DNA of 36,127 nt. Origin: Thermoplasmata archaeon (GTDB taxonomy: Archaea; Thermoplasmatota; Thermoplasmata; Lutacidiplasmatales; UBA184). The notes beneath the pieces were generated by a model, which searched no databases, was not told where the DNA came from, and was given only the letters and a program-made list of their open reading frames with translations. This document shows positions 12,401-32,688 of the stretch, piece after piece. The stretch lies in NCBI GenBank assembly GCA_030040865.1, contig JASHSX010000013.1, positions 1 to 36,127 on the forward strand, written 5' to 3'. Positions within the stretch are counted from its first letter, which is position 1. Every line of letters begins with the position of its first letter. A program made the translations under genes and the position numbers.

Positions 12401-15330
12401 GTTGCGATGTCGAACCACGGGGTGGAGGTGACGTTGCCGGAGATCCACGGCAGCGGTTCCAAGGGCAGGACTCCCACGTCTACCGCCAACGCGACGGAGG
12501 CGTTGATGAACTCCGAGAACGGTTCGTAGCCGGGCACGGAGAGGTTCAGGTAGAAGAGGCCGGACGGGATTGACTGGTTGAAGAATCCTCCGGTGTTCGC
12601 CCCCGAGGAGAAACCGACCCCGCCGATCGCGCCGGGGCTCGTGAGCACGAACTCCGTCGCCTGCACCGCCACCCCCCACCCGGTGGAGGCGTCGACGACC
12701 CGCCCGGTGAGCCAAGCGCCCCCCGCGTTCGAAGCGGACGACGGCGCCGAAGCCGCACTCGCCGAAGCGTCCGAGGCGGTCGAATTCGCGTTCGCCCCGA
12801 CCGGCTGGAGGACGATCGGCGGAAGGACCGTCGTCTCGTTGGACGTCACGTTCGCCCAGGTCCAGTCGGTCGAGTAGCCGGACGCGGTGACCTCGATCTT
12901 GTACGTGGATCCGGGCAGCCAGCCTCCCGGGAGGAGTCCCAGGTACTGGCCCCCGGTCGAGACCCGGCCCGATCCGAGGATCGTCTCACACACCAGCTGG
13001 GCGGTGATCGGACACACGCTCGCGTGGGCGTCGAGGATCGGCTGTCCCTCCGGGTCGAGGACGAGACCGGTCAGCGTGCCGAGGGGCGTGAGAAAGATCG
13101 GTCCCACCGACGTCGTCCCCTCGCTCGAAACGTTCGCCCAGACCGTGTTGGGCGCATACCCCGATGCCGAGACGGTGATGTACCCCCACCCGGGGGGCCC
13201 CGGGACATCGAAGGTACCGTTGATCAGCGTCACGTTCGAGAAACAATTGAGCCCGTCCAGGGGGCAGATCTCCAGGGACGCGAACGGGACCGGCTCGGTG
13301 CCGCCCGCCTCCTCCACCAGTCCTGAGACCATCACCGAGCCGGTGAGATTGATCGATTGGACGTGTTCGTTGTTGGCGGTCGAGAGCGCCAGCGGGAACT
13401 GCTTCGTGTCGCAGCATAACGACTCGGTGCTGGCCCAGGTGGTGTTCGAAGCGGACTCGGCGCCGGACGCCTCGATCTGGACGGGTCCGGGGGGAGCCGG
13501 CACGCAGAACGCCGTCGCCGTGTCCACGTACGGGGAACAGTCGAACGCGCTCAGTTGGTCGACGTACGAATAGGAGACTCCCGGGGACACGGTGTAGCTC
13601 GTCGACGTGGCGGTGACGACGAACCCTCCGGGGGGCGCCTCGTTGGTACCTTGAAGGTAGACGTTGCCCGCGATGTACGTGCCGACGGGCATGGACGCGT
13701 TCACGTACGTCGTCTCGTACGGCGTCACATTGGCCCACGCCGTCGTCGGATAGACCGGGAGGTCCCCCGGTATCGGCCAGGTGGGATACGGCGGATCACA
13801 GAACGGTGTGTAGTCGGGCGTGATCAGGATGTAGTTCTGGAGCGGCAACGCGGCGAGCTCACCCGGCTCTCCGACCTGCTGGCACCCGCCCGAGATGCAG
13901 TTGGAGATGCTCGTGTTGATGACGACCTCGGTGTTCTGGATGACACCGGCCACGATCGTGCCGACCTTGTAGCCGTCCGCGCTGCAGACGCTTGCGCGCC
14001 AAAGTCCGGTGTGGAAGTCGTTCTCGAGCGACGTGACGTTCGCCTGGTCTTGCGGGTTCGAAGCGTCGTAGTCGAGACTGACGGTGAGCTGGACGGTACC
14101 CGGGGGAGTGAGGTAGAAGGCACCGAGGTTCACGACCTGGCCCGGATTCTCCTTGGCGACGAAACCGATCGACTGGGTGAGCTGGACGTATCCCTCCGCC
14201 TGGAGGATGATGTAGTCGTTGCCGGGAGGGCCGAAGGCGCTCAGTTCGCCGGTCTGGCTGGCGGCGCCCTGTTCGGCGCATTGGCCGCTGATCGAGCTGC
14301 ACACTTGGAGCGAGGCCCAGCTGCCCGAGATCAACTGCCGCGTGGCGGCGTCGTAGATGGAGGCCCGGAACGAGTCGTACGCCTCAAGGTAGATCGTGCC
14401 CAGATCCACCGAGGCCCCGGGCGTCGCATTCACCCAGGTGAAATTACCCTGAAAGGCGTAGAACGGCGACTGGAACTGGACCGTCGAGGGGACCGGCGGC
14501 ACCGCCGCGGTGAAGCTCCCGTTCTCCGTCGTCGTCCCGATCGGGGTGCCGACCTGCGTGTCGTTCAACGACGCCGAGGAGACGACCACCCCGGGGACCG
14601 GCTGAGGTATCGGAGTGTCGGTCATCACATAGCCGGTGATCGTCGCCTCGTGGACCAGGTAGGTCGTCCCGGAATAGGTCGTCGAATCGTTGGCGACCGT
14701 GGCGTACGACGTGTTGGACAGGTAGTAGTTCGCGGTGAAGACCAGGTAGTCGGTCCCCACCGGCGCGACCACGTTGAAATACCCGGTCGCGGAGGAGCTT
14801 CCGGCCACGCAGATCTGCGGGGAGCAGAGTTCCCCGCTGAGCGAGTACGCCTGCACGGCAATGCCGGAGAGTCCGAGGCGCTGCCCGATCGAGTTCGCGA
14901 CCGACGTGTTGACGAAGCCGCTGAGGCGCCCCGTGAGCTCGCTCTCGTCCTTCGTGAGGCGCGCGCTTGCCGCGGCCCGGGTCGCGTTCTCTTGGGCGGC
15001 TTCGGCCCGGAGCGCGCTCGTGACGGTCAGGTTGTGGAACTCCTCGGCCTGGGCGAGTTGCGGCGAGTTGCTGTAGACGCCCGTGGGATGCGCGCCGGGG
15101 AGCGCCGAGGAGGAGACCGGGGCACTCGGGACGGACGGGGCGGGCGCGAGCGGCGACACCGAACCGGCGCTGCCGGTCGAGGTCACGAACTCCCCGGACG
15201 GCACCGCGCTCAGCAGCATCGCCGCAGCGATCCCTACGATCGCGGCCACTTCGAACGCCATCGACCGCTCCCACCGAACCGAGGCGACCGTCCCACCCGA
15301 GGAAGAATTGTGGGAACGGAAGGCCCCCAT
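9448..15330 (-). CDS. Giant surface protein (1960 aa) of tandem carboxypeptidase-regulatory-like / prealbumin-fold repeats with a C-terminal TM anchor
   Basis: Track ORF 9448..15336; ATG at 15330 preferred over TTG. N-terminal hydrophobic segment. Recurrent ~85-95 aa unit GxxxGxV...PxxGAxV...G.F...V[S/T]AxGY...LGxIxL. Ends LLIVTAAAIGGVGATILGLRLRGRR. Confidence 0.92.
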   Translation of the reverse strand: MGAFRSHNSSSGGTVASVRWERSMAFEVAAIVGIAAAMLLSAVPSGEFVTSTGSAGSVSPLAPAPSVPSAPVSSSALPGAHPTGVYSNSPQLAQAEEFHNLTVTSALRAEAAQENATRAAASARLTKDESELTGRLSGFVNTSVANSIGQRLGLSGIAVQAYSLSGELCSPQICVAGSSSATGYFNVVAPVGTDYLVFTANYYLSNTSYATVANDSTTYSGTTYLVHEATITGYVMTDTPIPQPVPGVVVSSASLNDTQVGTPIGTTTENGSFTAAVPPVPSTVQFQSPFYAFQGNFTWVNATPGASVDLGTIYLEAYDSFRASIYDAATRQLISGSWASLQVCSSISGQCAEQGAASQTGELSAFGPPGNDYIILQAEGYVQLTQSIGFVAKENPGQVVNLGAFYLTPPGTVQLTVSLDYDASNPQDQANVTSLENDFHTGLWRASVCSADGYKVGTIVAGVIQNTEVVINTSISNCISGGCQQVGEPGELAALPLQNYILITPDYTPFCDPPYPTWPIPGDLPVYPTTAWANVTPYETTYVNASMPVGTYIAGNVYLQGTNEAPPGGFVVTATSTSYTVSPGVSYSYVDQLSAFDCSPYVDTATAFCVPAPPGPVQIEASGAESASNTTWASTESLCCDTKQFPLALSTANNEHVQSINLTGSVMVSGLVEEAGGTEPVPFASLEICPLDGLNCFSNVTLINGTFDVPGPPGWGYITVSASGYAPNTVWANVSSEGTTSVGPIFLTPLGTLTGLVLDPEGQPILDAHASVCPITAQLVCETILGSGRVSTGGQYLGLLPGGWLPGSTYKIEVTASGYSTDWTWANVTSNETTVLPPIVLQPVGANANSTASDASASAASAPSSASNAGGAWLTGRVVDASTGWGVAVQATEFVLTSPGAIGGVGFSSGANTGGFFNQSIPSGLFYLNLSVPGYEPFSEFINASVALAVDVGVLPLEPLPWISGNVTSTPWFDIATPVGHFDLAPPAQVTVCTASGVFVCSQQPVESTYLNGTGYYRVQSPSLGPMNVSAIGLGGGPYTGGGGFVFGYTIVGVNVSGQSIATFQMGDFSSYSGYVMDQTMGNGQGVRYAPVSIQVGGPGTRGGTASGPASAQGYYVLFASPYTGDPDHDGSHLIQVLATTPNAYVSGAAYYDNSSAGEPGQSIAMPTMYLEHYGYVEFRVVSSNGAPVPTPGVFSSVLATSGSYEASSGIGNQNGWVNTTAPPGDHVELLVSADSEGPFNSTTFYLNVSPSRTTFAAGGSGIHLGAIVLQSFGYTASSQVNSSSTPVLASVKDAANHQPLPNAEIDVTNSGGTSASLNPQPTNEEGQFLENAPAGEDDLLTVSHPAYESVVLALNVHPGAFTNVTSVNLTGDGVIAGQVIGYPSNAPISGALVVACSPGETICPSAESNISGDFWVAAAPGTVFVNVSATDFDSNGTELKLCSDCWQHLAGAIHLDAFASFSGLVLGLPAGYPIVGAQVQVCAAAGACFAPSLSDSAGRIVDVEPPGTYTMDVSAAGFSPASLGIVLTPGESLDLGTIFLNEFGTVEGSVVNSATRDPVVGAQVLLCGTATGASCAPQSLSDASGAFAVQGPAGASQLIVSAPGYATDFGTVGVLSGAVVTLPAPIDLVPLGQDVAYTVSGRVETASGPFGVGGSPLGGAVVALLVNGTPAFSTETGASGSFQLSASVGEYVLSIFLPGFAVLAEPMEVSSPTSLGDLLLSVQTYDVSGIVADGYTGAGLANVSIGLVAANGTWVPLATSAADGSFSTELPNGSWSIRAVPAPSSTVPYAPVTFPIQIDGAAQSLPIDLLPPQTAIYGLVADQTSGLPIVGAQVTVQGVAVDGHSVQLSFVSSANGTFRIVLPEGQYTFDASALGYVTLRQGVDATGSTGSVVLALGGMPGTSPSSGSAISLGGWELLIVTAAAIGGVGATILGLRLRGRRTRPAREARPATDEGGEER

Positions 15331-15426
15331 GGTCAACAGCGGGCGCTTCGACCACTCGGGTCCCCGCGTGGCGGGTGGACACCCCGATGAGGCCAGACGG
15401 GCATCCTCGGTTCCACACTGCGATGG

Positions 15427-15909: not shown

Positions 15910-18900
15910 TTAGGGAGGCTCGGTATCCTGAGAGGGAGGAGCGGTTTTCGGGCCGGTCGGGTCGCCGCTGGCGGGGCTCCGACGCGGGGGAGGTCCGCGC
16001 GGAGCCGAGCGGCTCCGGTTTCGAAGGACGAGCGCGATCACGATGACGGCCACGAGAACCCCGAATCCGGCGTACGCGAGCAGGGCCGAGGGCCCGAGCC
16101 AGGGCTGCGAGGTCCCCGACCCGGACGACGAGGTGGTGAAGCTCACGGCCTCACTCAGCGACTGGTCCGAGACGGTGACGGTACCCGAGACCGGCAGACC
16201 GACGAAACCGGACGGCCCCTGAACGGCGTAGGAGAAGTCTCCCTCCGGCTCGACGAACAGCACGGAACTCGTCGACGAGTCGTGGCTGACCCCGGCGAGC
16301 GTCACCGACCAGTTGGCGCCGGGCGGAAGCCCGGATTCCACGAACGTGACGTAGTACTCGATGAGCTTGAACGAGATGTTCTCGGCGATGGCCCCGCCCT
16401 GCACGGTGAGCGATCCCGAGGACGGATCGCAACCGTAGCCCGAGATCGGGGCCACGACGTAGAGGTAGGTACCGTTCGGAAGATCCCAAAGGACGGAGCT
16501 CGACGTGGACTGGTTGCTGGTCCCGTTGAGCGTCACCGACCAGGCGACTCCCGGTTGGAGACCCGACTCTTGGAAGACCACGGGGTACTCGGTGGCCGTG
16601 ACGCGGACGAAATCGACCAGGATCGAGACCCGGCTCCCGGTCACGGAGAACCCGGCCGCAGCCGGGCTCGGGCGGTACCCCGACACAGTGCCGATGGTAT
16701 AGTCGTACGAGCCGTTCAGTTCCGAGAAGGCGACCGAGGAGCCCGTGCTCGCCGAGCGGGAGTCGTTCACGGTCACGGACCAGCTCGTCCCGCCTGGTAG
16801 CCCGGATTCGTTGAAGTCGACGTCGTACGTCTCGTTCGAGCGGAACTGGAGGATCGAAACGGTGCCGTTGACGGAGTTCGCCACGTAGAGCGCGCCGGTG
16901 TCCGGGTCGTAGGCCGCAGCGTTCGGGCCGGCTCCGACCGAGAGGGTGGCGAACGTTCCCCCGGAGCTCGCGTTCAGCGCGGTGATCGATCCCGAGAGGT
17001 AGTCGGCGACCACGACCTCGTCCTTGTTCGGCACGGCCGTCGCAGCGGCCGGACCGGCGCCGACCTTGGCCGTGGAGAGGACGGTGTCGTCGACCGTCGA
17101 CAGGACGGAGACCGTGTTGGAGCCGTTGTTCGCCACGAACGCCTCCTGGAGGCCAGGCATGACGGCCACCGCGTCGGGGGAAAGCCCCACGTCCACGTAC
17201 GGCCCCGGGGAACCGGTGGCCGCGTCGAGCACGCTGATTTGGTTCGTCGTGTCGTCGGCCGTGAGGACTTCCTGGTCCGAGGTGTCGACCGCGAGGCCCA
17301 CGGGGAACTCTTCGGCGGCGATCCCTCCGCCGACGACCACGTTCCGGGTGTCGTTGATGACCGCGACGGAGGCACTGCTGTTCCCCCCGACGAACACCTC
17401 GCCCAACTGGGGGTCGTATCCCAGAGCAAGCGGAGAGTCATCCACCGCGATATTCGCAGTCACCGTGTCGGAGGCGTCATTGATGACGCTGACCGTATCG
17501 GAACCCGAGTTCGCTACGAAGATCTCGTGCTGCCCCGCATCGTAGACAACGCCGACGGGAAGGGACCCGACGGCGACCCGGGCCACGATCGCGTTCGAGG
17601 CGTCCGAGACGACGTCGACCACTCCCGCGGCCTCGTCCGAGACGAACAGCTGGTGCGTCCCCGCGTCGAAGGCGATGCCGGCCGGCTTTGCCCACAAGGA
17701 GATGTTGGCCACCACCCGGTCCGTAGTGTCGGAGATCACGGACACGAAGCCGGTGGCGCGGCTCACGATCCAGACCTGGCTCCGTCCGCTCACGTACACG
17801 ATGCCGAACGCGTCGTTCCCGGCGACGACCGAGGCGACCGATTTGTCGGTCGTCGCGGAGACCACGGTCACGTTGTCCGACCCGATATTGGTCACGAAGA
17901 TCTCGGACTCGCCCGAGTCGTAGGCAAGTCCCGTCGGGGCCGACCCCACGGCGATCTTTGCGACGACGGCGTACGTTTGCGCGTCGATCGCCCAGACGGA
18001 GCTCGACCCGGAGTTCGCGACGAAGATCTCCTGCAGCGTGGGATCGTAACCGATGCCGTACGGCTGGTCGCCGACCGGTATCGTCTGAACCACTTGGAAG
18101 TCGGTGTCGTTGATCACCGACACGAGGTTCGTTCCCCAATCCGTGACGAACACCTCCCCGAGCTGCGGGTCGTAGGCGAGGGCGAACGGTGTGCTCCCTG
18201 CCCCGAGCGGGATGTTCGCGAGAATCGCGTTCGTCGTGGCCGAGATGATCGTCACCTCCCCCGCGTCGTCGTCCGCGACGAAGACCTCCCCCTGACCGCT
18301 GTCGTAGAGCAGCGCCGGGCAGCCGCTCTGGTCGGGCGTCGGGAGCGCCGCCACGACCTGGCCCGAGGCGGCGCGGATCACCTGGATCTCGTTCGACCAG
18401 TCGGCGCCCACGAACCACTCGTTCTGCACGGGGTCGAACGCGAGCCCGAGGGGGTGCTGCCCGGTGGGTATCTGGGCAACGACCGCGTCGGTGGTGTCCG
18501 AGATTTCGCTCAGGGCGTTCGAGTACTGATCGCCGACCACGACCACTCCGGTGTCGGGGTCGTACGCGGCGAAGTACGGAGTGATCCCGTTGGGAGACGA
18601 GAAATTGCCGGGGATATCCGTACCGTTGCTGAGGACCAGCGTGTTCGCCACGTACGGGGCCTCGAGCCCGACCGGGCCACCGAGGGGAGTGGCAGCCGCC
18701 CGACCAGTAACCGGGCCCGGGTGGGAGGACTCCGGCGCCGCATCGATGGTCGGGACAGACCCTCCGCTGCGGAGGGGGGATACCGGGAGTGCACCGACCA
18801 GGGATGAGACCGAGCCTGAGACGAGAAATACGATCGCAAGGACGAGGGCCGCCACGAGGGTTGGGACCGACCCACAGGTACGGGAGCGAGAAGATCCTCG

Positions 18901-18936
18901 TCGGTCGCCACGCGAGCGTCGGGCTGATGGTACCAT
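15910..18936 (-). CDS. YVTN/YncE-type beta-propeller surface protein: 14 blades, three Thermoplasmata-type Ig-like repeats, C-terminal TM
   Basis: 14 counted repeats of Pxx[L/I]AYD...E[I/V]FV[A/T]NxxSxxVSVI. Three VxFxESGLxxGxxWSVT units. Signal-like N-terminus, and a TM helix plus basic Pro-rich tail. Confidence 0.93.
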   Translation of the reverse strand: MVPSARRSRGDRRGSSRSRTCGSVPTLVAALVLAIVFLVSGSVSSLVGALPVSPLRSGGSVPTIDAAPESSHPGPVTGRAAATPLGGPVGLEAPYVANTLVLSNGTDIPGNFSSPNGITPYFAAYDPDTGVVVVGDQYSNALSEISDTTDAVVAQIPTGQHPLGLAFDPVQNEWFVGADWSNEIQVIRAASGQVVAALPTPDQSGCPALLYDSGQGEVFVADDDAGEVTIISATTNAILANIPLGAGSTPFALAYDPQLGEVFVTDWGTNLVSVINDTDFQVVQTIPVGDQPYGIGYDPTLQEIFVANSGSSSVWAIDAQTYAVVAKIAVGSAPTGLAYDSGESEIFVTNIGSDNVTVVSATTDKSVASVVAGNDAFGIVYVSGRSQVWIVSRATGFVSVISDTTDRVVANISLWAKPAGIAFDAGTHQLFVSDEAAGVVDVVSDASNAIVARVAVGSLPVGVVYDAGQHEIFVANSGSDTVSVINDASDTVTANIAVDDSPLALGYDPQLGEVFVGGNSSASVAVINDTRNVVVGGGIAAEEFPVGLAVDTSDQEVLTADDTTNQISVLDAATGSPGPYVDVGLSPDAVAVMPGLQEAFVANNGSNTVSVLSTVDDTVLSTAKVGAGPAAATAVPNKDEVVVADYLSGSITALNASSGGTFATLSVGAGPNAAAYDPDTGALYVANSVNGTVSILQFRSNETYDVDFNESGLPGGTSWSVTVNDSRSASTGSSVAFSELNGSYDYTIGTVSGYRPSPAAAGFSVTGSRVSILVDFVRVTATEYPVVFQESGLQPGVAWSVTLNGTSNQSTSSSVLWDLPNGTYLYVVAPISGYGCDPSSGSLTVQGGAIAENISFKLIEYYVTFVESGLPPGANWSVTLAGVSHDSSTSSVLFVEPEGDFSYAVQGPSGFVGLPVSGTVTVSDQSLSEAVSFTTSSSGSGTSQPWLGPSALLAYAGFGVLVAVIVIALVLRNRSRSAPRGPPPRRSPASGDPTGPKTAPPSQDTEPP

Positions 18937-19211
18937 CCTAGCGGTAGCTCCCGAGTGAGTCGTCTCGAACGTCTAGTCCCTTTTATCGCTGTCGCGCAGG
19001 CACCCCCGCCTCGGCCGGGCGCTCTTACCAATTCTCGGACTCGGATTCCTCCTAAGGACAGGAATATCGCGGGATTTCTGTCGTACCGTTGAATGGCTCA
19101 CGGAGGAGGGCCACTTCCCGTCGGGCCGCGACGGTGGTAGGCGGGGTGGGCCGGGCGGGTCCCGCCGACGCGTTCGACGACCCGGACGCCTACGGAGCTC
19201 GTAGGTCAGCC

Positions 19212-19643
19212 CTACGCGCCGACTCCGATCTTGGGCTTCTCGCCCTCGGAACTCTCGGGCCCCTCGCGATCGAAGAACGAGAACGCGGCCAGGAACCCGA
19301 GCGTAACGGCCAGCACGATCGCGACGATCGACGAAAGCGGGAAGGAGGGAACCGAGTACGTCAACCCCTGCCCTACGAAGGGAATCGGGTTCTTCGGGCC
19401 CAGGAAGGCGAAGATGCCCCAGGTGATCCCGATGAAGATGACCGTGATGGCCGTGTCCCCCTTGCCGTACGGGTAGCTGTCGGGCAAACGGCCGTAGCGG
19501 GTCGCGAGATAGGCCAAGACGATGATCAGCGTAATCACGAGGGCGAAAACGAGGTAGACAGCGAGCGCGAGGTACAGCAAGGCGAAAAGGAAGAGCGCCA
19601 TCGCGTAGACGGGTACGTCCATCTCGACTCCGGGACCGCTCAC
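19212..19643 (-). CDS. Small integral membrane protein of unknown function (about 4 TM)
   Basis: 143-aa ORF with long hydrophobic stretches. AGGAG upstream of GTG 19643; an alternative start is the downstream ATG (MDVPVY). Confidence 0.8.
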   Translation of the reverse strand: MSGPGVEMDVPVYAMALFLFALLYLALAVYLVFALVITLIIVLAYLATRYGRLPDSYPYGKGDTAITVIFIGITWGIFAFLGPKNPIPFVGQGLTYSVPSFPLSSIVAIVLAVTLGFLAAFSFFDREGPESSEGEKPKIGVGA

Positions 19644-19809
19644 CTATGTCGCACTCCTTGATAAGACCGCACGGTCGGTTTCGGCGAGGTGCCCAAAGTC
19701 CGACCCGTGATTCGGAAATTTGTTCGGGCGGATGGGGGGACCGCCCACCGGGCCACTCCGAACGTTGTCGACACGCCGAATGGGCTGGCCTCCGGCCCCG
19801 CGCGAGGCG

Positions 19810-20664
19810 GTGACGACCGTTCCGCGTCGGGGTTCGAGGGCGGCCCCGTCCGCCGGTGGCACCGTTGTGATCGTCGGAGGCGCCGGAGCGATGGGCCGGT
19901 GGCTCGCCCGATTTTTCGAGCGACGGGGCCACTCGGTGAAGATCCTGGACCCCCGTCGAGATTCCTCCGGTCGTGCCCGAGTCCCGACGATCGAGATCGG
20001 AGCACGATCCGCCGAGGTGGTGGTGTTTGCCACCCCGATCGCTGAGACGGCTCCGCTTCTCGCGAAACTCGTCGCTACGGGAACCGACGCGCTGGTCTTC
20101 GACGTCCTGAGCCTGAAGAGCCCCATCCTTCCCGCGGTCCGTCGTGCCGCTGCTGCGGGGCTCAAGATCACGAGCGTTCACCCGATGTTCGGTCCGACGG
20201 TCCGACGCCTTCGCGGTCGGAATCTGCTCGTTCTCTCCTGCGGCAACCCGAGCGCGGATCGGGCGGTGGGCCGACTCTTTCGGGGGTCTGGGCTCACGAT
20301 CTCCCGTTCGGCGATCGAGGGGCACGATCGGCTGATCGCCGAGACCCTCGGGCTCCCGCAGGTTCTGGACCTGCTGTTCCTCCTAGTGCTCGGATCCGGT
20401 CGAACCGCCCCGCCGCATCTCGCACGGGCGGCCGGCACGAGCTTTCGACGGCACGCCGCGTCCGCGCGAGCCCTCCTTCGACAGAGCGCAGCGTTGACGT
20501 TGCAACTTCAGGTGGGGAACCCGTACACCCACGCCTCGCTGCGCCGGATTCGGGCGAACGTCGACCGTCTGGCCCGCCTCCTCCGGGCGGAGGACCTAGA
20601 CGCCCTGGAGGTCGCGATCGATCGCGGATCTGACCGTTTGAGAGCGGTCCGCCCCCGCGATTAG
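19810..20664 (+). CDS. tyrA: Prephenate/arogenate dehydrogenase (divergent, Arg-rich)
   Basis: Rossmann motif VVIVGGAGAMGRW, FDVLSLKS, catalytic SVHPMFGP, HDRLIA. Start uncertain: GTG 19810, ATG 19779 region, or track start 19720. Confidence 0.85.
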   Translation: MTTVPRRGSRAAPSAGGTVVIVGGAGAMGRWLARFFERRGHSVKILDPRRDSSGRARVPTIEIGARSAEVVVFATPIAETAPLLAKLVATGTDALVFDVLSLKSPILPAVRRAAAAGLKITSVHPMFGPTVRRLRGRNLLVLSCGNPSADRAVGRLFRGSGLTISRSAIEGHDRLIAETLGLPQVLDLLFLLVLGSGRTAPPHLARAAGTSFRRHAASARALLRQSAALTLQLQVGNPYTHASLRRIRANVDRLARLLRAEDLDALEVAIDRGSDRLRAVRPRD

Positions 20665-22182
20665 CGCAGGCCCTTCGCCGAGCGCCGAATACCCAGGAGA
20701 CCGCGCGCCGCCTCCGGTGGGCCGGTACGGAGAATCCCGGACGGGAAGCGGTCGAACCCTCGACGACGCCCGATTGACGGCAACGGCCACGAAGAGTCGC
20801 GTCGCGCGAAGCTTCTCCACGGTGGCGCTGAGGCGCTCGAGCGGGACGTCAAAGCGGAGCGACCGGCCGTCGCGGGTGGATCTTCCGAGCTCCCCGAGGA
20901 GGCCGTCCCACGCCGGCCGGGGTCCCCGGGGGCCCTCGCGAAGGATCGCGACAACTCGGGCTCGCCCGGCGGCGGGCACGGTGAGACGGGAACGTGCACG
21001 GCGGAGGACGGCAGGATCCGACGGACCGCTCCGTCGTATCCGCGTACCCCCACGGCGCCCGACCGGGATGTCGATACCGATCACGCGAACCCGGAGTCCG
21101 GGGGGAATAAGTCGAAGGGCTTCTCGGGAGACCAGCGGACACCCGCCCTCCGCCAGCCGTTCGAGGTCGTCGGCATCGATCTCTCGCACCACGGGACCCC
21201 CGGAACACAGATCGGGGTCGGCGAAGAGGAGGCCCGGGACGTCCTTGACCAACGCCACTTCCTCAGCCCGGAGCAGTCGACCGAGGGCCACGGCCGTGAC
21301 GTCACTTCCCCCGCGCGGGAGGAGCGCCGGACCCCCCTGCCGATCGACGCCCACGAATCCCGGCAGGACGATTACCGACGCGTCCCCGGGCGTAAGGAGA
21401 GCGCGAACTCGGGGCCGGCTGCGGGCGAGATCCACCTCAGCGTTCCAAGGGCCCCCCCGGAGCACGAGCGGCCAGCCGGCGTCCTCCGGGACGACCAGCC
21501 GGGAGACGATCCCCCGCGCTCGAAGATGGGTGTCGAGGACCCGGGCCCCGAGTTCCTCGCCCCGCGCCAGAGTACGGAGCGACGCGGAGCTGGCTCCCGA
21601 CGACGGGATCGACGGCAGAAGTCCGAGGATATCGTCGGTCAGAGTCCCCGGGGCGCTCGCGACCGCGATCACGTTCCCGCGTCGGGCACACCGGGCGATG
21701 AGATCGACCGCCCGGGCCACACGGGCGGGGTCGCCGGCGATGCTTCCCCCGAATTTCAGGATCCGCGTCGGACGTCTCCGGCGGGACGGGGGGGACCGCG
21801 CTCGACGGAGCTGTGCTCCGATCCGTGGGACGATGCGAGGCACCGGCGGCTCGGGGCTAGGTACCGAACGTTGGGCGCGTACGGACTCGTCGATAAGCCA
21901 ATCGGCAAGAACACTCGAACGCTCGCTCGTCACGCCGAGCGTCCCGAGAGCCTGTTGCCAGCGCTGGTGAACCTGGGCCTCGACCGGGCGGTTCCGGATC
22001 GGGAGTCCCACGCCCTTCTTGTAGCACCCGATCGACCGCGCGACCCGCAATCGTCGCTCGATGGCTCGCTGGAGGGCGCGATCGATCCTCGCGATCTGGA
22101 GTCGGAGCTCCGACAACTCGAAATCCGTCCCGTCCGACTCGACCGGGAAGCTGTCGCGGGAGGTCTGGTCCGCTCCGCTCAT
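20596..22182 (-). CDS. AroQ-type chorismate mutase domain fused to aspartokinase
   Basis: ATG 22182 (MSGADQ) after GGGGAAGG. CM: LSELRLQIARIDRAL..IERRLRVARSIGCYKKGVGLPIRN..VEAQV...ESVRAQ. AK: ILKFGGS, AVASAPGTLTDDIL, ARGEELGA, LPGFVG, PRGGSDVTAVALG, KDVPGLLFADP. One frame with no stop between the domains. Confidence 0.85.
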   Translation of the reverse strand: MSGADQTSRDSFPVESDGTDFELSELRLQIARIDRALQRAIERRLRVARSIGCYKKGVGLPIRNRPVEAQVHQRWQQALGTLGVTSERSSVLADWLIDESVRAQRSVPSPEPPVPRIVPRIGAQLRRARSPPSRRRRPTRILKFGGSIAGDPARVARAVDLIARCARRGNVIAVASAPGTLTDDILGLLPSIPSSGASSASLRTLARGEELGARVLDTHLRARGIVSRLVVPEDAGWPLVLRGGPWNAEVDLARSRPRVRALLTPGDASVIVLPGFVGVDRQGGPALLPRGGSDVTAVALGRLLRAEEVALVKDVPGLLFADPDLCSGGPVVREIDADDLERLAEGGCPLVSREALRLIPPGLRVRVIGIDIPVGRRGGTRIRRSGPSDPAVLRRARSRLTVPAAGRARVVAILREGPRGPRPAWDGLLGELGRSTRDGRSLRFDVPLERLSATVEKLRATRLFVAVAVNRASSRVRPLPVRDSPYRPTGGGARSPGYSALGEGPALIAGADRSQTVRSAIDRDLQGV

Positions 22183-22432
22183 CCTTCCCCCGAATGGGAG
22201 GCGGCCCGGAACCCACCCGGACCTTCCGATCCGGCGGGGGAGCGCGGGCCCTCGACTGTCGGAATTCGGCGGCGGCGAGCTTCGCAGTCCCTCCGACCGG
22301 CCGCACACGGGCCTTGCCCGATGAGTGGCTCCGAGCACGGAGCCGTCGGAGCTTCGCCACGGCGGGTCGGGGACGTTACTGGGCCAGCGCACCCGGCCGG
22401 CGCGCACTGTATTGGCGGGACATCACCGACCT

Positions 22433-22462
22433 TGCTATGGTCTAGCACGGCCCCTACTTTAA
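22433..22462 (-). promoter_or_regulatory. Candidate promoter and operator upstream of the CM-AK gene
   Basis: TTAAAGTA on the - strand (22462-22455), followed by the inverted repeat TGCTA-n5-TAGCA (22433-22447). Confidence 0.45.
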
Positions 22463-22553
22463 CTCGTCGGTCGCACGACCGAACGGGACGGCGACGCCCA
22501 TCGGGAGGCGGGCTCGCATGCGTGTGCTCCTCCCCGGCGGGCTCGGCGCAGAG

Positions 22554-23633
22554 TCATCTCGGCCCGTCCGGCCGGGCTCCCCCTCCGACGTCGCTTACGA
22601 ACGTCCGTGGATTCGAACCCACTTCCCCGAGCGAAGCGACGAGTGACGCGGCGACGTCCCGGGCCCGTTCCGCGCTGGAGAAGGCGAACACGGCTGGTCC
22701 GCTCCCGGACAAGCCGGCGCCCCACGCTCCCGCGCGCCGGGCCGCGCGGCAGGCCCGGGCGAAACCGGGCACCAGAGACGCCCGGTACGGTTCGGCGATC
22801 CGATCGGCGAGGCTCCGGCCCACCTGATCGAGATCACCGGTGAGCAGCCCGTGTACGAGGCTGCACGCTCGTCCGATGTTCTCGCTCGCATCCGCGAGGG
22901 GGACGGTCGCCGGGAGCACGGAGCGCGAGAGGCGGGTGCTGAGCGGTGTTTCGGGCACGGCGAGCACGACCTTGAGCCGCGCGGGGGGCACGATGCGCAG
23001 GACGACGAGCGGATCGACGGACTCCAGGAACGTGAATGCCCCGGCAAGACTCGCCACTACGTTGTCGTAGTGGGCGCTCCCCGCCGCTGCAAATTCTCCC
23101 CCCACGGCTGCGCATCTCAGGATCTCGCGAAGTACCGGGTCCGAGGTGAGCGGAAGCCCCAGGGCGATCGCCCCGACCAGGGCACCGCCCAGAGCCGAGG
23201 CACCGCTCGATCCGATCCCGCTCCCGCCGGGCCCTCCCTTCCGTATCCGCACGACGCCGGACGCGACGCGCCCGGCCCTGGCGAAGATCGCGGTGAGAGC
23301 GGCCGAGGCGGCATTCGCCCCCGGCGTCGTGGGGAGCGACGCGTCGCCTTCGACCTCGACCGAGAGCCCACCGTCCGTTCGGGGCTCGAACTCGATCCGG
23401 TCCTCGATCGCCGCGAGCGAAAGCCCGAATCGGTCGAAGCCGGGCCCGACATTGGCGATGCTGTACGGCACCCGAACTCGTATGGTCCCGGTATGGTCGC
23501 GAGACCGCCACAGTTCGGAGAGATCCGGAACGGCCCCTCCGAATACCGGGGGGACCGTTTCTCGCCCGAGCGGGAGCTCACGAACCGACGCGACGAGATC
23601 CCCGATCCGAGTCGCTGCCGCGTCCGAGCTCAT
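22554..23633 (-). CDS. thrB: Homoserine kinase (GHMP family) with a ~45-aa N-terminal extension
   Basis: ATG 23633 overlaps the hom stop (ATGA). VRVPYSIANVGPGFD, GSGIGSSGAS, HYDNVVAS, IAEPYRASLVPGF, LSGSGPAVF. Confidence 0.93.
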   Translation of the reverse strand: MSSDAAATRIGDLVASVRELPLGRETVPPVFGGAVPDLSELWRSRDHTGTIRVRVPYSIANVGPGFDRFGLSLAAIEDRIEFEPRTDGGLSVEVEGDASLPTTPGANAASAALTAIFARAGRVASGVVRIRKGGPGGSGIGSSGASALGGALVGAIALGLPLTSDPVLREILRCAAVGGEFAAAGSAHYDNVVASLAGAFTFLESVDPLVVLRIVPPARLKVVLAVPETPLSTRLSRSVLPATVPLADASENIGRACSLVHGLLTGDLDQVGRSLADRIAEPYRASLVPGFARACRAARRAGAWGAGLSGSGPAVFAFSSAERARDVAASLVASLGEVGSNPRTFVSDVGGGARPDGPR

Positions 23634-24835
23634 CGACGGAGACCCCGGGCCGTGTGCCCACCGATCCGTAGCGTAGCGATCCGCGACGGGGGTGCCACCG
23701 GGCCCGATCTTGGGATCGGTGTCTTCGCGGCGACGTCGGAGGGAGGGAGGTCCGCGGGACGGCGCCTCCACGACGCGCGCGCGCCACGCTCGAGCGACTC
23801 CAGTTCGGCCAGCAGTGCGGTCGCGACCTCGTCCGGACCGGCGCCCGGTCCTCGGAGCCAGAATGTTCCCGAGTACCGGGTCTCGACGCGGGCGAGACAC
23901 GTCGAACCCGGTACGTCCCACTCCCCTCCCTCGCGGATCCTGCGCAGACGGACTTCCGCCGCGCCCGGGAGGATCGTGGTGACGCTCGCGTAGCGTACGC
24001 GCCCCCGTTGCTCGGGCGGGACGCGTCGCGCGGTGTCCGCCGTGACCCGGTCGCACGGGATCGCCTCGGGAGCGAGCTCCGACCCGAAGAGCGCCTGATG
24101 GACGATGGCGGCCTTCAGGCTCGCATCGCGGCCGTCCAGGTCCCAGCTCGGATCGGCCTCGGCGATACCCAGACGCTGCGCCTTCCCGATGGCGTCCTCA
24201 AATCCGACGCCCCGCGCGAGCTCCTGCAGGACGAAGTTGGTCGTGCCGTTCAGGATCGCATCGACCCGAACCGGCGCCGCGGCCGCGAGCAGCGTCGGCG
24301 CGAGGGAGAGCAGCGGCACCGCTCCTCCGACCGTGGTGCCAAAGCGCACCGAGCGTTGGCGGCGTTGGGCCTCGTCGAGGATCGGAGCGTAGAACCGGGC
24401 GATGGGACTCTTGTTCGCCGTGACCACGTCGGCGCCCACGGCGAGCGCCCGGAGGATGTGCTCGGTCCCCGGCTCCCCCGAGACGACTGCTCCGCGGGTG
24501 AGCTCCAGGACCACATCGGGACGTACGCGCTCGAGCACCTCGCCGACCGTGCCGCGCACCGGGCCGCGATTCCCCAGTCGTCCCTCGCGGTCCTTCTCGC
24601 CGAGGGCCGCGACGAGGTCGATGCCGTTCGGGTCGGTCCACGCTCCGCTGGTATCGAGCGCGGCCACCACGCGCCAGCGTCGAGAGCCGCTCCAGCCGTT
24701 CTGTTGTTCGAGTCGTCGGGCGAGAGCGCGCCCCACCCGCCCGAATCCCACAATCGCCAGATCTCGGGCGCGGAGAGGCTCGCGGTCGCTCTCGGAGGGT
24801 GTGGGTGCGATCGCGGGAACGGGGGTGGCGCTCAT
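23630..24835 (-). CDS. hom: Homoserine dehydrogenase
   Basis: ATG 24835 overlaps the upstream stop (TGATG). IVGFGRVG, VVTANKSPIA, TVGGAVPLL, ILNGTTNFVL, AEADPSWDLDGRD, GPGAG. Confidence 0.94.
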   Translation of the reverse strand: MSATPVPAIAPTPSESDREPLRARDLAIVGFGRVGRALARRLEQQNGWSGSRRWRVVAALDTSGAWTDPNGIDLVAALGEKDREGRLGNRGPVRGTVGEVLERVRPDVVLELTRGAVVSGEPGTEHILRALAVGADVVTANKSPIARFYAPILDEAQRRQRSVRFGTTVGGAVPLLSLAPTLLAAAAPVRVDAILNGTTNFVLQELARGVGFEDAIGKAQRLGIAEADPSWDLDGRDASLKAAIVHQALFGSELAPEAIPCDRVTADTARRVPPEQRGRVRYASVTTILPGAAEVRLRRIREGGEWDVPGSTCLARVETRYSGTFWLRGPGAGPDEVATALLAELESLERGARASWRRRPADLPPSDVAAKTPIPRSGPVAPPSRIATLRIGGHTARGLRR

Positions 24836-25122
24836 CAGAACCCGGCTCCCCCGGCGACCGCGGGGATGAGGTCGATCCGCGAGTCTCGAGTCACCGGAGT
24901 CGCGGCCCCGCCGGCATACCGGATATCGACGCCATCGACGTAGACGGCAAGGACACCGCGGAGTTGATCGCCGTCGAACAGAAGCTGGCGGAACCGGGGC
25001 CCCCCCACGACGGAGATCTGGGTGAGGAACTCCCCCACGGTCCCTTCGAATTCCGCGAACCTCCGGAGGTCCACGCCGAGTGCCGCCTGACGAAGGACCG
25101 ACCCGAGCGTGACCGTCACCAT
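24835..25122 (-). CDS. MoaD/ThiS/SAMP-family ubiquitin-like (beta-grasp) protein, 95 aa, ending ...IPAVAGG-AGF
   Basis: ATG 25122 overlaps the thrC stop (ATGGTGA). EGTVGEFL, LAVYVDGVDIRYAGG.ATPV..DSRIDLIPAVAGG is the typical MoaD-like pattern. Confidence 0.9.
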   Translation of the reverse strand: MVTVTLGSVLRQAALGVDLRRFAEFEGTVGEFLTQISVVGGPRFRQLLFDGDQLRGVLAVYVDGVDIRYAGGAATPVTRDSRIDLIPAVAGGAGF

Positions 25123-26492
25123 GCCCGAGCCTCCCCCGGAGCGTCGTCCCGGCCGTTGAGCCATCGCGCAATCTCGTCCGCGTCGAAGCGCCGCGGATCC
25201 AACACGAGGGAGGGCAGCGACGACTCGGCCTCGATGCCGACGTCCGGGACCTTCCAGCCGGCCCCCGTCAAGAAAAGGACCACCCGATCCGACCGGGATA
25301 GGACCCCGGAGGCACGCAGCCGCCGGGCGGTCGCGATCACGGTCCCTCCCGCCGGTTCCACCCAGAGTCCCTCCCGGTGGCATGCGGCCCGAATCGCGTC
25401 CGTGACCTCGCCCGCACTCGGGGCGTCCGCCACCCCGCCGCTCCGTCGGATCGCGCGCAAGGCAGCCGGGCCCGACGCCGGGTCTCCGATCGCCAGGCTC
25501 TCCGCGATCGTGGTCGGGGTCTGCACGGGTTCAGTTCGGTCCGCACCGCGGTGGAAGGCGTCGACGATCGGGGTACAGCCCTCTGGCTGGGAGCCGATCA
25601 GCCGGAGCCCGCCGCCGGGCGACCGGTCCAACCATCCGAGGGAGGTGACCTGACGTTCGGCGCGCGCCGTGGCTGCGAGGAGAGCACCGGACCCGAGCGG
25701 GACGATCACCGCCTCCGGCGGAGTCCACGAGAGTTGCTCGAGCACCTCCAGCAGGACGGTCTTCGAGCCCTCGGCGTAGTAGGGGCGGAGGGTCACGTTG
25801 ACGAATCCGATCGGCAGCCGCTCGCCGACGAGGCTCGCGATCCGATTCGCGTCGTCGTAGGTCCCACGGACCTCCACGATCCGTGCCCCATACCGACGGG
25901 CCGGTGCGAGCTTCGCGGCCGGAAGACCGCGCGGTACGACGGTGAGGCACGGGGACCCGACGCGGGCGGCGGACCGTGCGGTCGCCGCCGCGAGGTTGCC
26001 GGTGGACGCACAACCGAACGCGGTGAAGCCCCGGCCGAGGCCAGTCGCCACGGCGACCGACGCCGGCCGATCCTTGAACGAACCGGACGGCAGCACCGAG
26101 TCGTCCTTGATCCAGAGGTCGTCGAGCCCCAGCAGCTCGCCGAGGCGACGGGCGCGGCGAAGCGGGCTTGACTCCACGGCAAGCCCCTCCTCGACGGCCC
26201 GGTCGATGGGCGGAAGCAGTTCCCGGAACCGCCAGAGGGTACGCGGCCGCCGACCGAGCAGCGCCACAGGATCGCTGCCGACGAGCGGTCCGAGGTCGTA
26301 GGCGACGTCGAGCGCCCCCAAACACTGGCCGCAGGCGGCCGCCACCTCGAGAGGCCCCGCAGCCCCGCACACCTCGCACGTCAGTCCCGAAGCGAGGCTC
26401 GTCGGGACCTCGGCCGTCGAAGAGGATCCGGGGTAGGTGAGGGGGGTCGGCGGTTCGGTGAGGCTCTCCGGCGGTCGGACGGGGGCGGTCAT
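25116..26492 (-). CDS. thrC: Threonine synthase family PLP enzyme with an N-terminal Zn ribbon
   Basis: ATG 26492 after GGAGG/AGGTG. CEVCG..CGQC, LWRFRELLP, PLP-lysine motif PSGSFKDR, CASTGNLAAA, YYAEGSKT, PLGSG, EGLWVEPAGG, LTGAGWK. Confidence 0.92.
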   Translation of the reverse strand: MTAPVRPPESLTEPPTPLTYPGSSSTAEVPTSLASGLTCEVCGAAGPLEVAAACGQCLGALDVAYDLGPLVGSDPVALLGRRPRTLWRFRELLPPIDRAVEEGLAVESSPLRRARRLGELLGLDDLWIKDDSVLPSGSFKDRPASVAVATGLGRGFTAFGCASTGNLAAATARSAARVGSPCLTVVPRGLPAAKLAPARRYGARIVEVRGTYDDANRIASLVGERLPIGFVNVTLRPYYAEGSKTVLLEVLEQLSWTPPEAVIVPLGSGALLAATARAERQVTSLGWLDRSPGGGLRLIGSQPEGCTPIVDAFHRGADRTEPVQTPTTIAESLAIGDPASGPAALRAIRRSGGVADAPSAGEVTDAIRAACHREGLWVEPAGGTVIATARRLRASGVLSRSDRVVLFLTGAGWKVPDVGIEAESSLPSLVLDPRRFDADEIARWLNGRDDAPGEARAW

Positions 26493-26523
26493 GGGGCACC
26501 TGAACCTCCTCGAGGAGACCGCG

Positions 26524-26560
26524 GCCATAATCGTGAGTGCACCAAAAATTCCTATAGGAC
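26524..26560. promoter_or_regulatory. AT-rich divergent promoter region between thrC and the HTH-CBS gene, containing the palindrome TCCTATAGGA
   Basis: GCCATAATC...CCAAAAATTCCTATAGGA in an 86-nt intergenic gap. Perfect 10-bp palindrome at 26550-26559. Confidence 0.55.
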
Positions 26561-26578: not shown

Positions 26579-27163
26579 ATGCCTTCCGATCCGCGAGTGT
26601 CCAGCTTTCCGGACCTCTCCGAGGTGCGGCGGCGACGGGTCCACGTGGGGCTCAGCCAGGGCGCTCTCGCCCAGGCGGCCGGCGTGAGCCAGTCGCTCGT
26701 CGCGAAGGTCGAGCGCGGCCGGGTCGAGCCGTCGTACCGGATCGTGCAGGCGCTCTTCCAGGCGCTGGAACGCCACGAGCGGCACGCGAAACCCGAGGTC
26801 TCGGTCCGGCACCTCATGTCGAGCAATCTCGTCACCGTCGCGCCGACCGCGCTCGTCGGGGAGGCCGCCCACCTCCTCCGGCGTCACTCGATCAGCCAGG
26901 TCCCGGTGCTCGAGCACGGGTTCAGCGTCGGCTCCCTCACCGACCGGGTGGTCGTGAGCTGCCTCGCCGACCCGTCCCTCGTGGACCGCCTTGCGAGCGT
27001 GCGGGTCCGTCAGGTGATGCAGGAGCCGTTCCCTCAGATCGACGAGTCGACGTCACGGTCGGTCGCCGTCGCCCTGCTGGGCCACGTACCGGCGGTGTTG
27101 GTGACGCGGGGCGGCCGGCTCGCCGGTATCCTCACCCAATCGGACCTGTTCAAGGAACTGTAG
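26579..27163 (+). CDS. XRE-type HTH plus CBS-pair predicted transcriptional regulator (COG3620-like)
   Basis: RRRRVHVGLSQGALAQAAGVSQSLVAKVERGRVEPSY (HTH). VRHLMS..., ISQVPVL..VGSLT and GILTQSDL (two CBS motifs). Confidence 0.93.
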   Translation: MPSDPRVSSFPDLSEVRRRRVHVGLSQGALAQAAGVSQSLVAKVERGRVEPSYRIVQALFQALERHERHAKPEVSVRHLMSSNLVTVAPTALVGEAAHLLRRHSISQVPVLEHGFSVGSLTDRVVVSCLADPSLVDRLASVRVRQVMQEPFPQIDESTSRSVAVALLGHVPAVLVTRGGRLAGILTQSDLFKEL

Positions 27164-27211: not shown

Positions 27212-30200
27212 TCACGTCGAGCGTCGACGCCGCCACAGGAACACCGCGGCGAGCACGGCCGCTCCGGCGAACACGAGGCCGCCCACGATCGCCGCGACGT
27301 CCGTCGAGCTCAGCGCGGGCGAGGCCGCCGCGGGAGCCGACGTCGTCTGAAGCGCCGAGAGCTGGATCGTGATCGAGGTGGTCGTACCGGGAGACACCGT
27401 CACGTTGTTGCTGTAGGGCGCGTAGCCGCTCGCCGACGCAGTGATCGAGTGGACCCCGGGCGCCAGCGTGAGCGAGAACGTGCCTCCGGAGCTTGCGACG
27501 ACGGCGCCGTCCACCCAGACGTTCGCGGCGGCCGGGACGACGGAACCCGCGAGCGTCCCCGGCTGGGGCGTGAAGACGACCGCCTGGTAGCCGCCCGAGG
27601 TTCCGACCGTGATGGCTCCCGAGGCGGGGGCGACCGTGTAGCCGGCGACATTCGGCACGGAGAACGAGTAGTCCCCGGCCTTCACCTCGGTCACCTGGAC
27701 GCTCGCGTTCGACGAGAGCGTGGTGCCGTAGAACGAGACGGACCACGTCGTCCCCGCCGTGAGGCCCGTCTCGGCGAACTCGGCCAGGTAGAGGCCGCCC
27801 GAGCCCGTCGAAGTAGGTTGCGAGTAGTCGATCGTGGTCGGGGACGCCCCGCCGAGGACGGTGATGTACCCGACGGGATCCGGACTCTCGTAGCCGGCCA
27901 CTGCGCCGGCGGTGAAGTTGTAGGTACCGTTCGGTAAGGCGAAGATGATCGGTTGGCCTGCGGCTGCCGACCCGGTCCACGGCGGAACGGCCACGCTCCA
28001 GGTCGCGGTCGAGGGCAACCCGGACTCGACGAAGTCCACCGGATAGGTGGTCGTGGTGAGGCTGAGCGGGCAATAGTCGCCGCCGTCGGCGATATCCCCC
28101 GAGTCCGTGAAGGGGAGCGGCGTCCCCGACAGGTAGTTCCCCCAGTAGTTGCCGCACTGGGTGTAGCCGTCCACGATGCTCCCCGAGAGCGCGTAGCCGT
28201 CGACCTCGCGGACCTGCGTCGCGGGCTCGACCCCCGAGAGGTTCCACCAGTCGAGGTTCGTCTGGCCGGCCCCCGTGACGAAGTTGCCGTTCGGGGCGTA
28301 GGCCTCGTAGGTGGTGGTCACGTAATTGTCGTAGATGAGGTCCCCCGGCTCGAAGCTCGAGATCCCGATCTCCTCGCCGTAGCCGTCCTCGCTCGAGGTC
28401 TGGAGTCCGGGCACGATGTGGTTCCCCCAGACGACGTTCCCGCCACCCTGCAGCATCAGGATCGACACCCCTTGATCGACGAAGGTGTTGTCGCCGATCA
28501 GCGAGTCCGTCGCGCCCCAGAGGATCATCGTCACCAGCGGGAATTCGAGCGGCGAGAGCGGGAAGATGTGCCCGGTGTTCCCGAACCAGCCCGTGATGTC
28601 CGATCCGCCCCAGACGACCACGTTCGCCACATCGTAGAGCTCGAACTGGAGCTCGTTGGTCGTCGGAAGCCCGACCTCGGCCATCTGGACCGCGACCGCG
28701 GGCGGGTAGTCGACCGTGAACGACGGAGGGTTGTTGAGATCGACATGGACCGTCGAGTTCGTGAAAAAGACCCCGGAGAACACGGGGAACCAATCGTCGT
28801 TGATCTGCGCGAACAGCGGATCGAGCGGCGCGGTCTCGGTATTCTCGATCTCGTACGGCGACGCGGCCGTCCCCGCGCCCGATGTGGCGAGCGCCGCGTA
28901 CTCCGAGTTGTCCCACGCGTAGAGGGGCGTGTAGATCCCCTGCGACGGGTCCTGCGAGAGGGCGATGTCGTCGGCCGAGACGGGCGTCGCGCTGAAGAGG
29001 AGCGGTTGCGGGTCGTAATCGCTGAGTTCCGCGACACCGGCGTACTCACCGGGCGGCAACGTGTACGAGTACGAGGATGCCGTCTCGGTCGGCGCCCAGC
29101 CGGCGGTCGCCCGGTCGAGCGACGACCCGGGATTGATGAACACGAACGAATTCGCGGGAGTGATCGACCCGGTGAGCTTCTGCGCGCCGACGTTGCCGCC
29201 GGGGGTCTCGTTCCACATCGGCTCGACGATCGACGGCCCGGCCCCGAGCTCCATGGTCCCCGGGGTGGTGTAGTACTCGGCGATCCCGTCGGACGTCTCC
29301 GCCGTATCGACGCCGGCGTCGAGCGCGGACGGGGCGTTCTGATAGTCGTGGGTCGTGGAATTGTAGTACCGCAGGGTCGAGCTCGCGTTGAGGCCGAAGA
29401 AGTTGATGTTCGAGCCGGATCCGTCTCCTCCGAAGACGATCTCGGAGTCGTACGGGAGTCCCACCGGCGTGAGCTGCGAGCCGTCCACCAGGAACTGCGG
29501 GACGGGAGTGCTCCCGACGGCGGTGCCGGAATTGAATTCGACGGTGTCGAACACGCCTCCCCAGAGCTCGGCGCCGGAGAGGGTGCCGAGTTCGTAGCCG
29601 AAGCGGACGGTCGGGTAGGCGATCCCCCCCGACACGGTCAGACTGGAGTTGATGTAGAGGTTCGCGACGAAGGGGAACGGTAGGGTGTAGCCGGGTCCGG
29701 CGTCCCCCCAGAGGTACGGTTCGGCGCTGCCGTTCTCGAGCGGAGACGGGTGGAACGTGCTGACCGGTTGCGTCGCGCCGGAGTTCGAGAAATTCCAGAT
29801 GTTGTCGACGAAGCTGACGGAGTCGGTCAGCGGACTGACCCCGAGGACGTCCTGCGTCCAGAAGTCGTTGGTCGTATTGCCGTAGACGGTCGTGTTCGCG
29901 AGCACCGTGTTGAGCTGCACCGTGAACACGTCGTCGGCCCCGTCGAGGTAGAGCGAGTTGGCGTTGAGGATCGTCACCGAGGCGGTCCAGCTCGTGGTGT
30001 TGAGGGTGTACGGTTGCGCGGTCCCTGTGGTGTTGCGGACGCCGATGTCCCCGATCCCCATGGGGGCCGGGCTGCTCGGATACAGCGGATGGACGAACGC
30101 CTCAGGGGTAGTGCTGCGGTCGAGGAAGTTCGGCAGGAAGACGTCGTGCGGGGAGAACCGCCCTTCCTGCGTGACGCTCGAGAGGACGCTCTTCTCCAGC

Positions 30201-30415: not shown

Positions 30416-30453
30416 GGGCCCCACTTGTCAAACCGACCATGTAAGGACTCCCG

Positions 30454-31715: not shown

Positions 31716-31719
31716 CGAC

Positions 31720-32658: not shown

Positions 32659-32682
32659 CCGGGGCGCGACGGAGGCTCCCCC

Positions 32683-32688
32683 CATAAA
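32683..32688 (-). promoter_or_regulatory. TATA-like box of pyrBI; spacing suggests a leaderless transcript
   Basis: TTTATG on the - strand, ~25 nt upstream of the pyrB ATG, with no clear RBS in between. Confidence 0.55.

Follow-up and report, generated by a model that had tools for sequence, protein, structure and literature searches.

An AroQ-type chorismate mutase domain is fused to DAHP synthase in Bacillus, Listeria and Geobacillus, which is the model for a sensor role of AroQ, and the sensor-type AroQ of Bacillus exists alongside a dedicated chorismate mutase. One earlier paper (PMC1173090) also notes that AroQ is often found fused to genes of the aromatic pathway. Here we analyzed a stretch of 36,127 nucleotides (called the window below) from an uncultured Thermoplasmata archaeon of peat, namely contig C194 (JASHSX010000013.1) of a metagenome-assembled genome (MAG; GCA_030040865.1) of 1.75 Mb in 205 contigs, which is 79.65% complete. 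The window contains a gene that joins an AroQ-type chorismate mutase (CM) domain to an aspartokinase-like domain, which we named AK2. The CM-AK2 fusion is a genuine single gene, specific to its lineage, and a very rare new domain architecture made from known parts. It most likely arose by a local rearrangement that split a gene for CM-TyrA, and we hold with moderate confidence that the gene left by this breakup encodes a bifunctional chorismate mutase/aspartokinase, with CM serving the neighbouring TyrA.

The fusion protein P0001 (528 aa) is encoded by a single open frame on the minus strand, from the ATG at 22182 to the stop at 20596-20598, with no internal stop. Pfam analysis showed that residues 26-104 match CM_2 (PF01817) on model positions 1-79 of 80 with 42.7 bits (cut-off 27), and that residues 139-368 match AA_kinase (PF00696) with 98.5 bits (cut-off 24.9). 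A chimeric assembly, or a miscounted homopolymer at the G7 run of the linker (21788-21794), could merge two genes falsely into such a frame; the MAG is fragmented (205 contigs), and the contigs of the likely source run (X1) break at 21912/21914. But record 9 of run X3 (791 nt), from another sample, covers 21394-22184 with 0 differences; it contains all of CM and continues through the linker with its G7 run into the first ~125 aa of the kinase. Record 1 of X1 covers 19600-21912, record 15 of X4 also crosses the G7 run, and no insertions, deletions or joints were found among the contigs over the fusion. The only in-frame ATG, GTG or TTG that we could read by eye between CM and the ILKFGGS motif of the kinase was the GTG at 21841-21843, and after a one-base error at the G7 run the kinase would have no start codon. 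A second protein, P0024, only 61% identical, carries the same join. The support consists of assembled Logan contigs rather than reads, with a depth of 3-15, and all four runs belong to one peat-metagenome study. We regard a false join as largely refuted and extremely improbable. The first-pass annotation of this DNA had read CM, a Pro/Arg linker and an aspartokinase in one frame, and the open frame, the Pfam domains and the bridging contigs agree with it. Between the peat samples there were nine single-base variants, all of them substitutions (3 synonymous and 6 non-synonymous). Four of the six non-synonymous variants fall at 21053-21070, where residues 371-377 form a loop of poor conservation that connects the kinase to the ACT-like domain.

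Comparison with NCBIfam gave the same two identities, and every one of the 25 matches listed (of 31) was to an aspartate kinase or chorismate mutase model. The kinase models cover the kinase domain only, and the best of them, NF005159, aligned residues 141-387 to model positions 5-252 of 406. The archaeal chorismate mutase model (TIGR01791 CM_archaeal) matched the CM part with 43.7 bits, which is below its cut-off of 66.95. An AlphaFold2 model of P0001 was built on 38 aligned sequences and had a mean pLDDT (predicted local distance difference test) of 80.8 and a pTM (predicted template modelling score) of 0.72. In this model the CM part forms three helices (17-57, 65-80 and 86-105, pLDDT 86-98), the linker at about 105-138 has low confidence, residues 139-385 take the kinase fold, residues 407-471 form one beta-alpha-beta-beta-alpha-beta unit (pLDDT 77-95 per block), and the tail (474-528) is disordered. 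A Foldseek search against the Protein Data Bank (PDB) returned aspartate kinases at all of ranks 1-42, with E values down to 2.7e-19 and 353-417 aligned columns, and PDB aspartokinases were also among the best sequence matches of the fused kinase domain. The Pfam scan of P0001 gave no ACT domain match. According to the model, the fusion has one ACT-like domain and no canonical tandem ACT pair, and the first-pass annotation likewise saw no clear canonical pair.

To estimate how rare this architecture is, residues 1-200 of P0001 were searched with phmmer against 1.84 billion representative proteins. Among the 139 matches at E<=0.001, P0024 alone, besides the query, joins CM and kinase, which means that the combination of CM_2 and AA_kinase was found in one other protein. 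The join was absent from 149 congener genomes (the unpublished G019 is counted among the genomes without the fusion), and none of the best 80 of 539 relatives in a scan of genome contigs matched P0001 residues before 107. A scan of metagenome contigs gave one locus, with an unrelated asd and a short aspartokinase, and no further fusion. Word-index searches returned only the query itself among proteins of similar length (residues 20-200) and no further CM-AK fusion among shorter proteins, and the ESM Atlas gave amino-acid kinase clusters only (scores 0.80-0.82), with no CM-AK fusion. In the titles and abstracts covered, no CM-AK fusion was described, as had been supposed at first pass; where aspartokinase and chorismate mutase terms occur together, this comes mostly from the name of the ACT domain.

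P0024 (236 aa) comes from an ENA contig of 1918 nt and aligns to residues 67-302 of P0001. In this alignment 25/38 residues of CM and 109/164 residues of the kinase are identical (66% for both domains), and the linker has 8/33 (24%); the spacer between the conserved motifs flanking the linker is 36 aa in both proteins. Since both domains were kept while the linker drifted, both parts appear to have been under selection after the two lineages split.

Where the CM domain came from could be traced among the congeners (n=149). Their genomes gave 28 CM matches at E<=1e-10, 25 of them in open frames of 370-503 aa, and all 14 extracted congener proteins (14/14) were confirmed as CM-TyrA, about 370-460 aa long with CM at the N-terminus. 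We count about 25 congeners with such a fusion. The CM of the fusion is 43-50% identical to the congener CM domains. In the CM-TyrA of G002, residues 13-94 match the fusion (45%) and residues 110-376 match the tyrA of the window (40%), so that the two halves of one congener protein correspond to two genes here. In the CM tree, the fusion CM was nested in a 98/93 clade of CM domains from congener CM-TyrA, and its end branch (0.71) was longer than the median (0.42). The window tyrA has no CM of its own and runs toward the fusion from the opposite strand, with its 3' end overlapping the last 69 nt of the fusion; it matches NF006409 with 90.7 bits, which is under the cut-off of that model. A tyrA next door was recognized at first pass, but its likely significance was missed, namely that the CM-TyrA of relatives appears here split, with the kinase between CM and TyrA.

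The kinase half has a separate history. In the kinase tree the fused kinase groups with P0024 (100/99) and then with P0002 (98/95) inside an AK2 clade (100/99), apart from AK1, the other aspartokinase of the same genome. The AK2 clade was found in 6 of 401 class genomes, the present one (G000) included, all in family f1. Nine congeners hold an unfused AK2 orthologue of 36-45% identity which begins at the kinase, and in 9/9 of them its start codon adjoins a DapB-like C-terminus. Pfam confirmed DapB and DHDPS at 4/4 of the AK2 loci of relatives that were tested, and the gene after AK2 in G022 was read as lysA without a profile. The nearest full-length relative, P0002, is 51% identical and has no CM. 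In the fusion, no start codon occurs in the codons preceding ILKFGGS, and the nearest in-frame candidate is the GTG mentioned above, so AK2 has no start codon of its own near KFGGS and its translation depends on the fusion.

A simple rearrangement would account for both halves. An ancestral CM-TyrA gene would have been cut in its linker by a local event that gave the fusion. If the tyrA-AK2 segment, bounded by the CM-TyrA linker and the 5' end of AK2, were inverted once, the order "thrB, CM-tyrA converging on AK2" would become "CM-AK2 converging on tyrA". Such an inversion would put AK2 behind the start codon of CM and would hand tyrA the region once upstream of AK2. Several points speak against this course of events. 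We infer the inversion from gene layout only, and no genome with the pre-inversion layout was found. The genome of P0002, possibly with a pre-fusion layout, was absent among 180 family genomes and 401 class genomes, and the synteny around the CM-tyrA of G002 and G013 is not shared with the window. An inverted repeat at the predicted breakpoints (19834-19856 and 21778-21805, score 25) was no better than chance, as its score was reached by 9/300 shuffles, 78/1468 random window pairs and 111/1349 region pairs, and a general repeat search gave nothing at the predicted breakpoints. We also looked at two possible relics of the event and rejected both. A stretch upstream of tyrA resembles the last CM helices by eye, but hmmsearch with a profile of 14 congener CM and linker sequences against the six frames of 19000-20000 gave negative scores (E>0.4). 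The linker gave no remnant of dapB either, since the window has no counterpart in the frame where nine relatives carry the DapB C-terminus. A single genus shows the pieces together with the probable parent gene, CM-TyrA, and with AK2 orthologues that are unfused and linked to dapB, and the case illustrates how a two-pathway enzyme could arise through one local rearrangement and then persist.

We next turn to the metabolic setting of the two halves. AroB' (DHQ synthase II) was found in the genome with 255.4 bits, and the adjoining gene encodes AroA' (ADH-synthase-like aldolase; 209 bits, where the equivalog cut-off is 299). Neither type of DAHP synthase was detected in the 79.65% complete genome. 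These genes lie on the minus strand of another contig (C34, locus L042, 1525-11462) in the one-strand order aroA'-aroB'-aroE-aroC-asd-AK1-trpE, and the order from the aro genes through asd and AK1 to trpE is the same in the congener G002 (L130, 1694-11626; two genomes were compared). AK1 is a full-length canonical aspartokinase, with 218 bits to TIGR00657 (cut-off 208.7). An aro operon with asd and an aspartokinase is as expected if aspartate semialdehyde is the aromatic entry point in these archaea. The first-pass annotation had expected entry by AroA'/AroB' instead of DAHP synthase, which is what the genome shows at this completeness. Its further idea, that aspartokinase is an early step of aromatic synthesis, held for the pathway, with the AroA'/AroB' route present and an aspartokinase in the aro operon, but not for the fusion, because that aspartokinase is AK1 and the fused AK2 lies elsewhere. 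AK2 follows thrC-hom-thrB here, and in relatives the order is dapA-dapB-AK2(-lysA). A tblastn search with the relatives' proteins found no dapA, dapB or lysA in the genome, and no prephenate dehydratase was found.

The fused CM was the only CM_2 match in the genome, and no CM_1 was found either. When the fused CM is aligned with that of P. furiosus (1ybz) and with CM-TyrA proteins of congeners (n=14), R27, R44, K55, R63, E68, S100 and Q104 are kept; N64 stands in place of an Asp, a change that also occurs in the CM-TyrA of G014. The active site of the E. coli CM comprises R11, R28, K39, D48, E52, S84 and Q88, to which these positions may correspond. In the kinase, which has the KFGGS and RGGSD motifs, K143, G145, G146, S176, T182, R290, G291, G292 and D294 do not vary among 14 AK2 sequences. 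Because it is the sole CM found and its aligned catalytic residues are kept, we read the fused CM as a catalyst. The N-terminal AroQ would thus be the chorismate mutase of the organism and would supply the TyrA encoded next door, and the C-terminal part (AK2) would be an aspartokinase paralogue that has diverged and has a single ACT-like domain. The two domains probably work independently on a flexible linker.

Some of the evidence pulls away from a bifunctional enzyme of this kind. Both activities are predictions, and as the genome is 79.65% complete, the failure to find a second CM, dapA, dapB, lysA or prephenate dehydratase does not prove that they are absent. All aspartate kinase equivalogs score far below their cut-offs (NF005159, 120.8 against 379 bits; TIGR00657, 91.8 against 208.7 bits), and for this reason the substrate of AK2 was deduced from best matches, fold and the gene context in relatives. 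In addition, the gene call of P0024 begins inside CM, at the equivalent of residue 67, with the first helix unseen, though its contig extends ~1.2 kb further; this lineage may thus have a truncated CM, or its gene start may have been called wrongly.

The low equivalog scores, together with the divergence of the AK2 clade and its confinement to one family (6/401 class genomes), would also fit a kinase that phosphorylates another substrate of the amino-acid kinase superfamily and not aspartate. But the best sequence and structure matches are all aspartokinases, and AK2 stands after dapA-dapB in relatives (before lysA in G022) and after thrC-hom-thrB here, which makes another substrate very unlikely. 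We give equally little credit to an accident in decay, in which a CM remnant would serve as the translation leader of AK2, or a dead kinase would trail behind a working CM. The start of the P0024 gene call, the somewhat longer branch of the fused CM and the failure to find dapA, dapB and lysA, with which AK2 is grouped in relatives, would suit such an accident. However, the aligned catalytic positions are kept in both halves, the C-terminal helices of CM and the kinase are conserved to the same degree between the two lineages while the linker is not, and no other CM was found, yet tyrA is retained next door.

The first-pass annotation had also proposed that AroQ could act as an allosteric sensor, so that binding of prephenate or chorismate to the AroQ dimer would alter aspartokinase activity, with CM perhaps catalytic as well. 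Aromatic synthesis would then feed back on the aspartate pathway in an organism whose shikimate route begins with aspartate semialdehyde. In favour of this, the layout of N-terminal AroQ, linker and catalytic domain is the same as in AroQ-fused DAHP synthase, AroA'/AroB' are present with no DAHP synthase found, AK2 has only one ACT-like domain so that the usual effector sites may be missing, and the CM half is conserved as well as the kinase in the lineage of P0024. We nevertheless consider it unlikely. We saw no sign that the domains are coupled; the linker, with 33-36 aa, is long, poorly conserved and predicted to be disordered; it is AK1, and not AK2, that lies with the aro genes; the rearrangement accounts for the fusion without regulation; and the fusion is extremely rare. 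In Bacillus the sensor AroQ coexists with a dedicated CM, but here the fused CM is the sole CM found. A prediction of the complex between the CM dimer and the kinase/ACT part scored 0.00 (mark 0.32) and bears on neither reading. That AroQ doubles as a prephenate/chorismate sensor gating AK2, and thereby couples the aromatic state to aspartate-family flux, is somewhat more doubtful still, and a sensor in place of a catalyst is unlikely given the sole CM_2/CM_1 match and its kept catalytic positions. If sensing did occur, AroQ would be a new allosteric module for aspartokinases, in place of the missing second ACT domain, and the fusion is in any case a defined protein for asking whether an AroQ domain can regulate an aspartokinase. 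The bifunctional chorismate mutase/aspartokinase derived from CM-TyrA is the reading that we keep.

Table 1 Features of the CM-AK2 locus in the window
Feature	Position	Strand	Basis
CM-AK2 fusion gene	20596..22182	-	one frame; two Pfam domains above cut-offs; junction bridged by contigs of two samples
AroQ-type chorismate mutase domain (residues 26-104)	21871..22107	-	PF01817; three-helix model; tree placement
Pro/Arg/Ser-rich interdomain linker with G7 run (residues 105-138)	21769..21870	-	pLDDT about 50
Aspartokinase-like amino-acid kinase domain (residues 139-385)	21028..21768	-	PF00696; aspartate kinase best matches; AK2 clade
Single ACT-like domain, predicted (residues 407-471)	20770..20964	-	AlphaFold2 model; kept across AK2 orthologues
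Disordered C-terminal tail (residues 474-528)	20596..20763	-	pLDDT <50; aligns poorly among orthologues
tyrA (prephenate dehydrogenase), without CM, convergent with fusion	19720..20664	+	PDH_N 35.9 bits
thrB (homoserine kinase)	22554..24056	-	NF002288 246.8 bits, above cut-off 194
hom (homoserine dehydrogenase)	23630..25171	-	PF00742 99.7 bits; PF03447; NF004912 217.7 bits, below cut-off
PLP-dependent enzyme, probably thrC	25116..26528	-	PF00291 214.4 bits; thrC name by context only
AT-rich TTAAAGTA box in thrB-fusion gap, possible archaeal TATA box	22455..22462	-	read directly from sequence

The fusion follows thrC-hom-thrB with a gap of 371 nt after thrB (22183-22553). The true start of thrB is probably near 23480, since the listed open reading frame matches the family only from residue 193 onward, and that of hom is probably internal to its listed frame. 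The frame of the fusion stays open upstream to a GTG at 22407, which would add 75 Arg/Pro/Ser-rich residues, and the second-position GC of this extension is high (0.72-0.76), unlike the coding part. An Rfam search of 19600-22600 (E<=1) gave a chance lncRNA match only. Divergent from thrC-hom-thrB lies a gene for a protein with HTH_3 and CBS domains (26579-27163, plus strand), which is a candidate ligand-sensing regulator of the cluster. All other features to be mentioned are on the minus strand. Two genes encode large proteins that are secreted or lie at the surface, namely at 15910-18936 a beta-propeller (YNCE/NHL) protein and at 27212-30424 a thermopsin-family protease with PEGA and CarboxypepD_reg domains; both have C-terminal repeats similar to the surface protein encoded ahead of CM-tyrA in G002 and G005. 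The genes pyrB-pyrI (31254-32919) encode the catalytic and regulatory chains of aspartate carbamoyltransferase, and two very long open frames (1461 and 1962 aa) occupy 7298-15336. The RNA of an archaeal RNase P (35937-36127; 108.6 bits against a gathering score of 84) is cut by the end of the window, and this RNA and the thermopsin-family protein identify the source as an archaeon.

Compared with described systems, the fusion shares features with several of them. The bifunctional aspartokinases, ThrA/MetL with homoserine dehydrogenase and the aspartokinase-DAP decarboxylase of NF006515, likewise combine an aspartokinase with a biosynthetic enzyme, and hom itself sits two genes upstream of the fusion, beyond thrB. 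But their partner is C-terminal and belongs to the aspartate family, whereas here it is N-terminal and from another pathway, and the matches of P0001 to bifunctional aspartokinase models cover the kinase part only and are far below cut-off. The short aspartokinases (TIGR02078 AspKin_pair and PRK08373) resemble AK2 in having a kinase with a small C-terminal regulatory part and no tandem ACT, but the scores are 51.3 against a cut-off of 242.4 and 66.2 against 237, and AK2 forms its own clade within one archaeal family. In AroQ-fused DAHP synthase an N-terminal AroQ is likewise followed by a linker and an enzyme early in a route that feeds aromatic synthesis, a likeness of architecture only; here the enzyme is an amino-acid kinase and not a TIM barrel, no second CM was found, and the linker is longer and disordered. 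AroQ-TyrA of the T-protein type, which the congeners also have, starts with the same N-terminal AroQ domain followed by a short linker, but in the fusion the partner is an aspartokinase and no enzyme of the aromatic pathway, and TyrA is encoded separately on the opposite strand.

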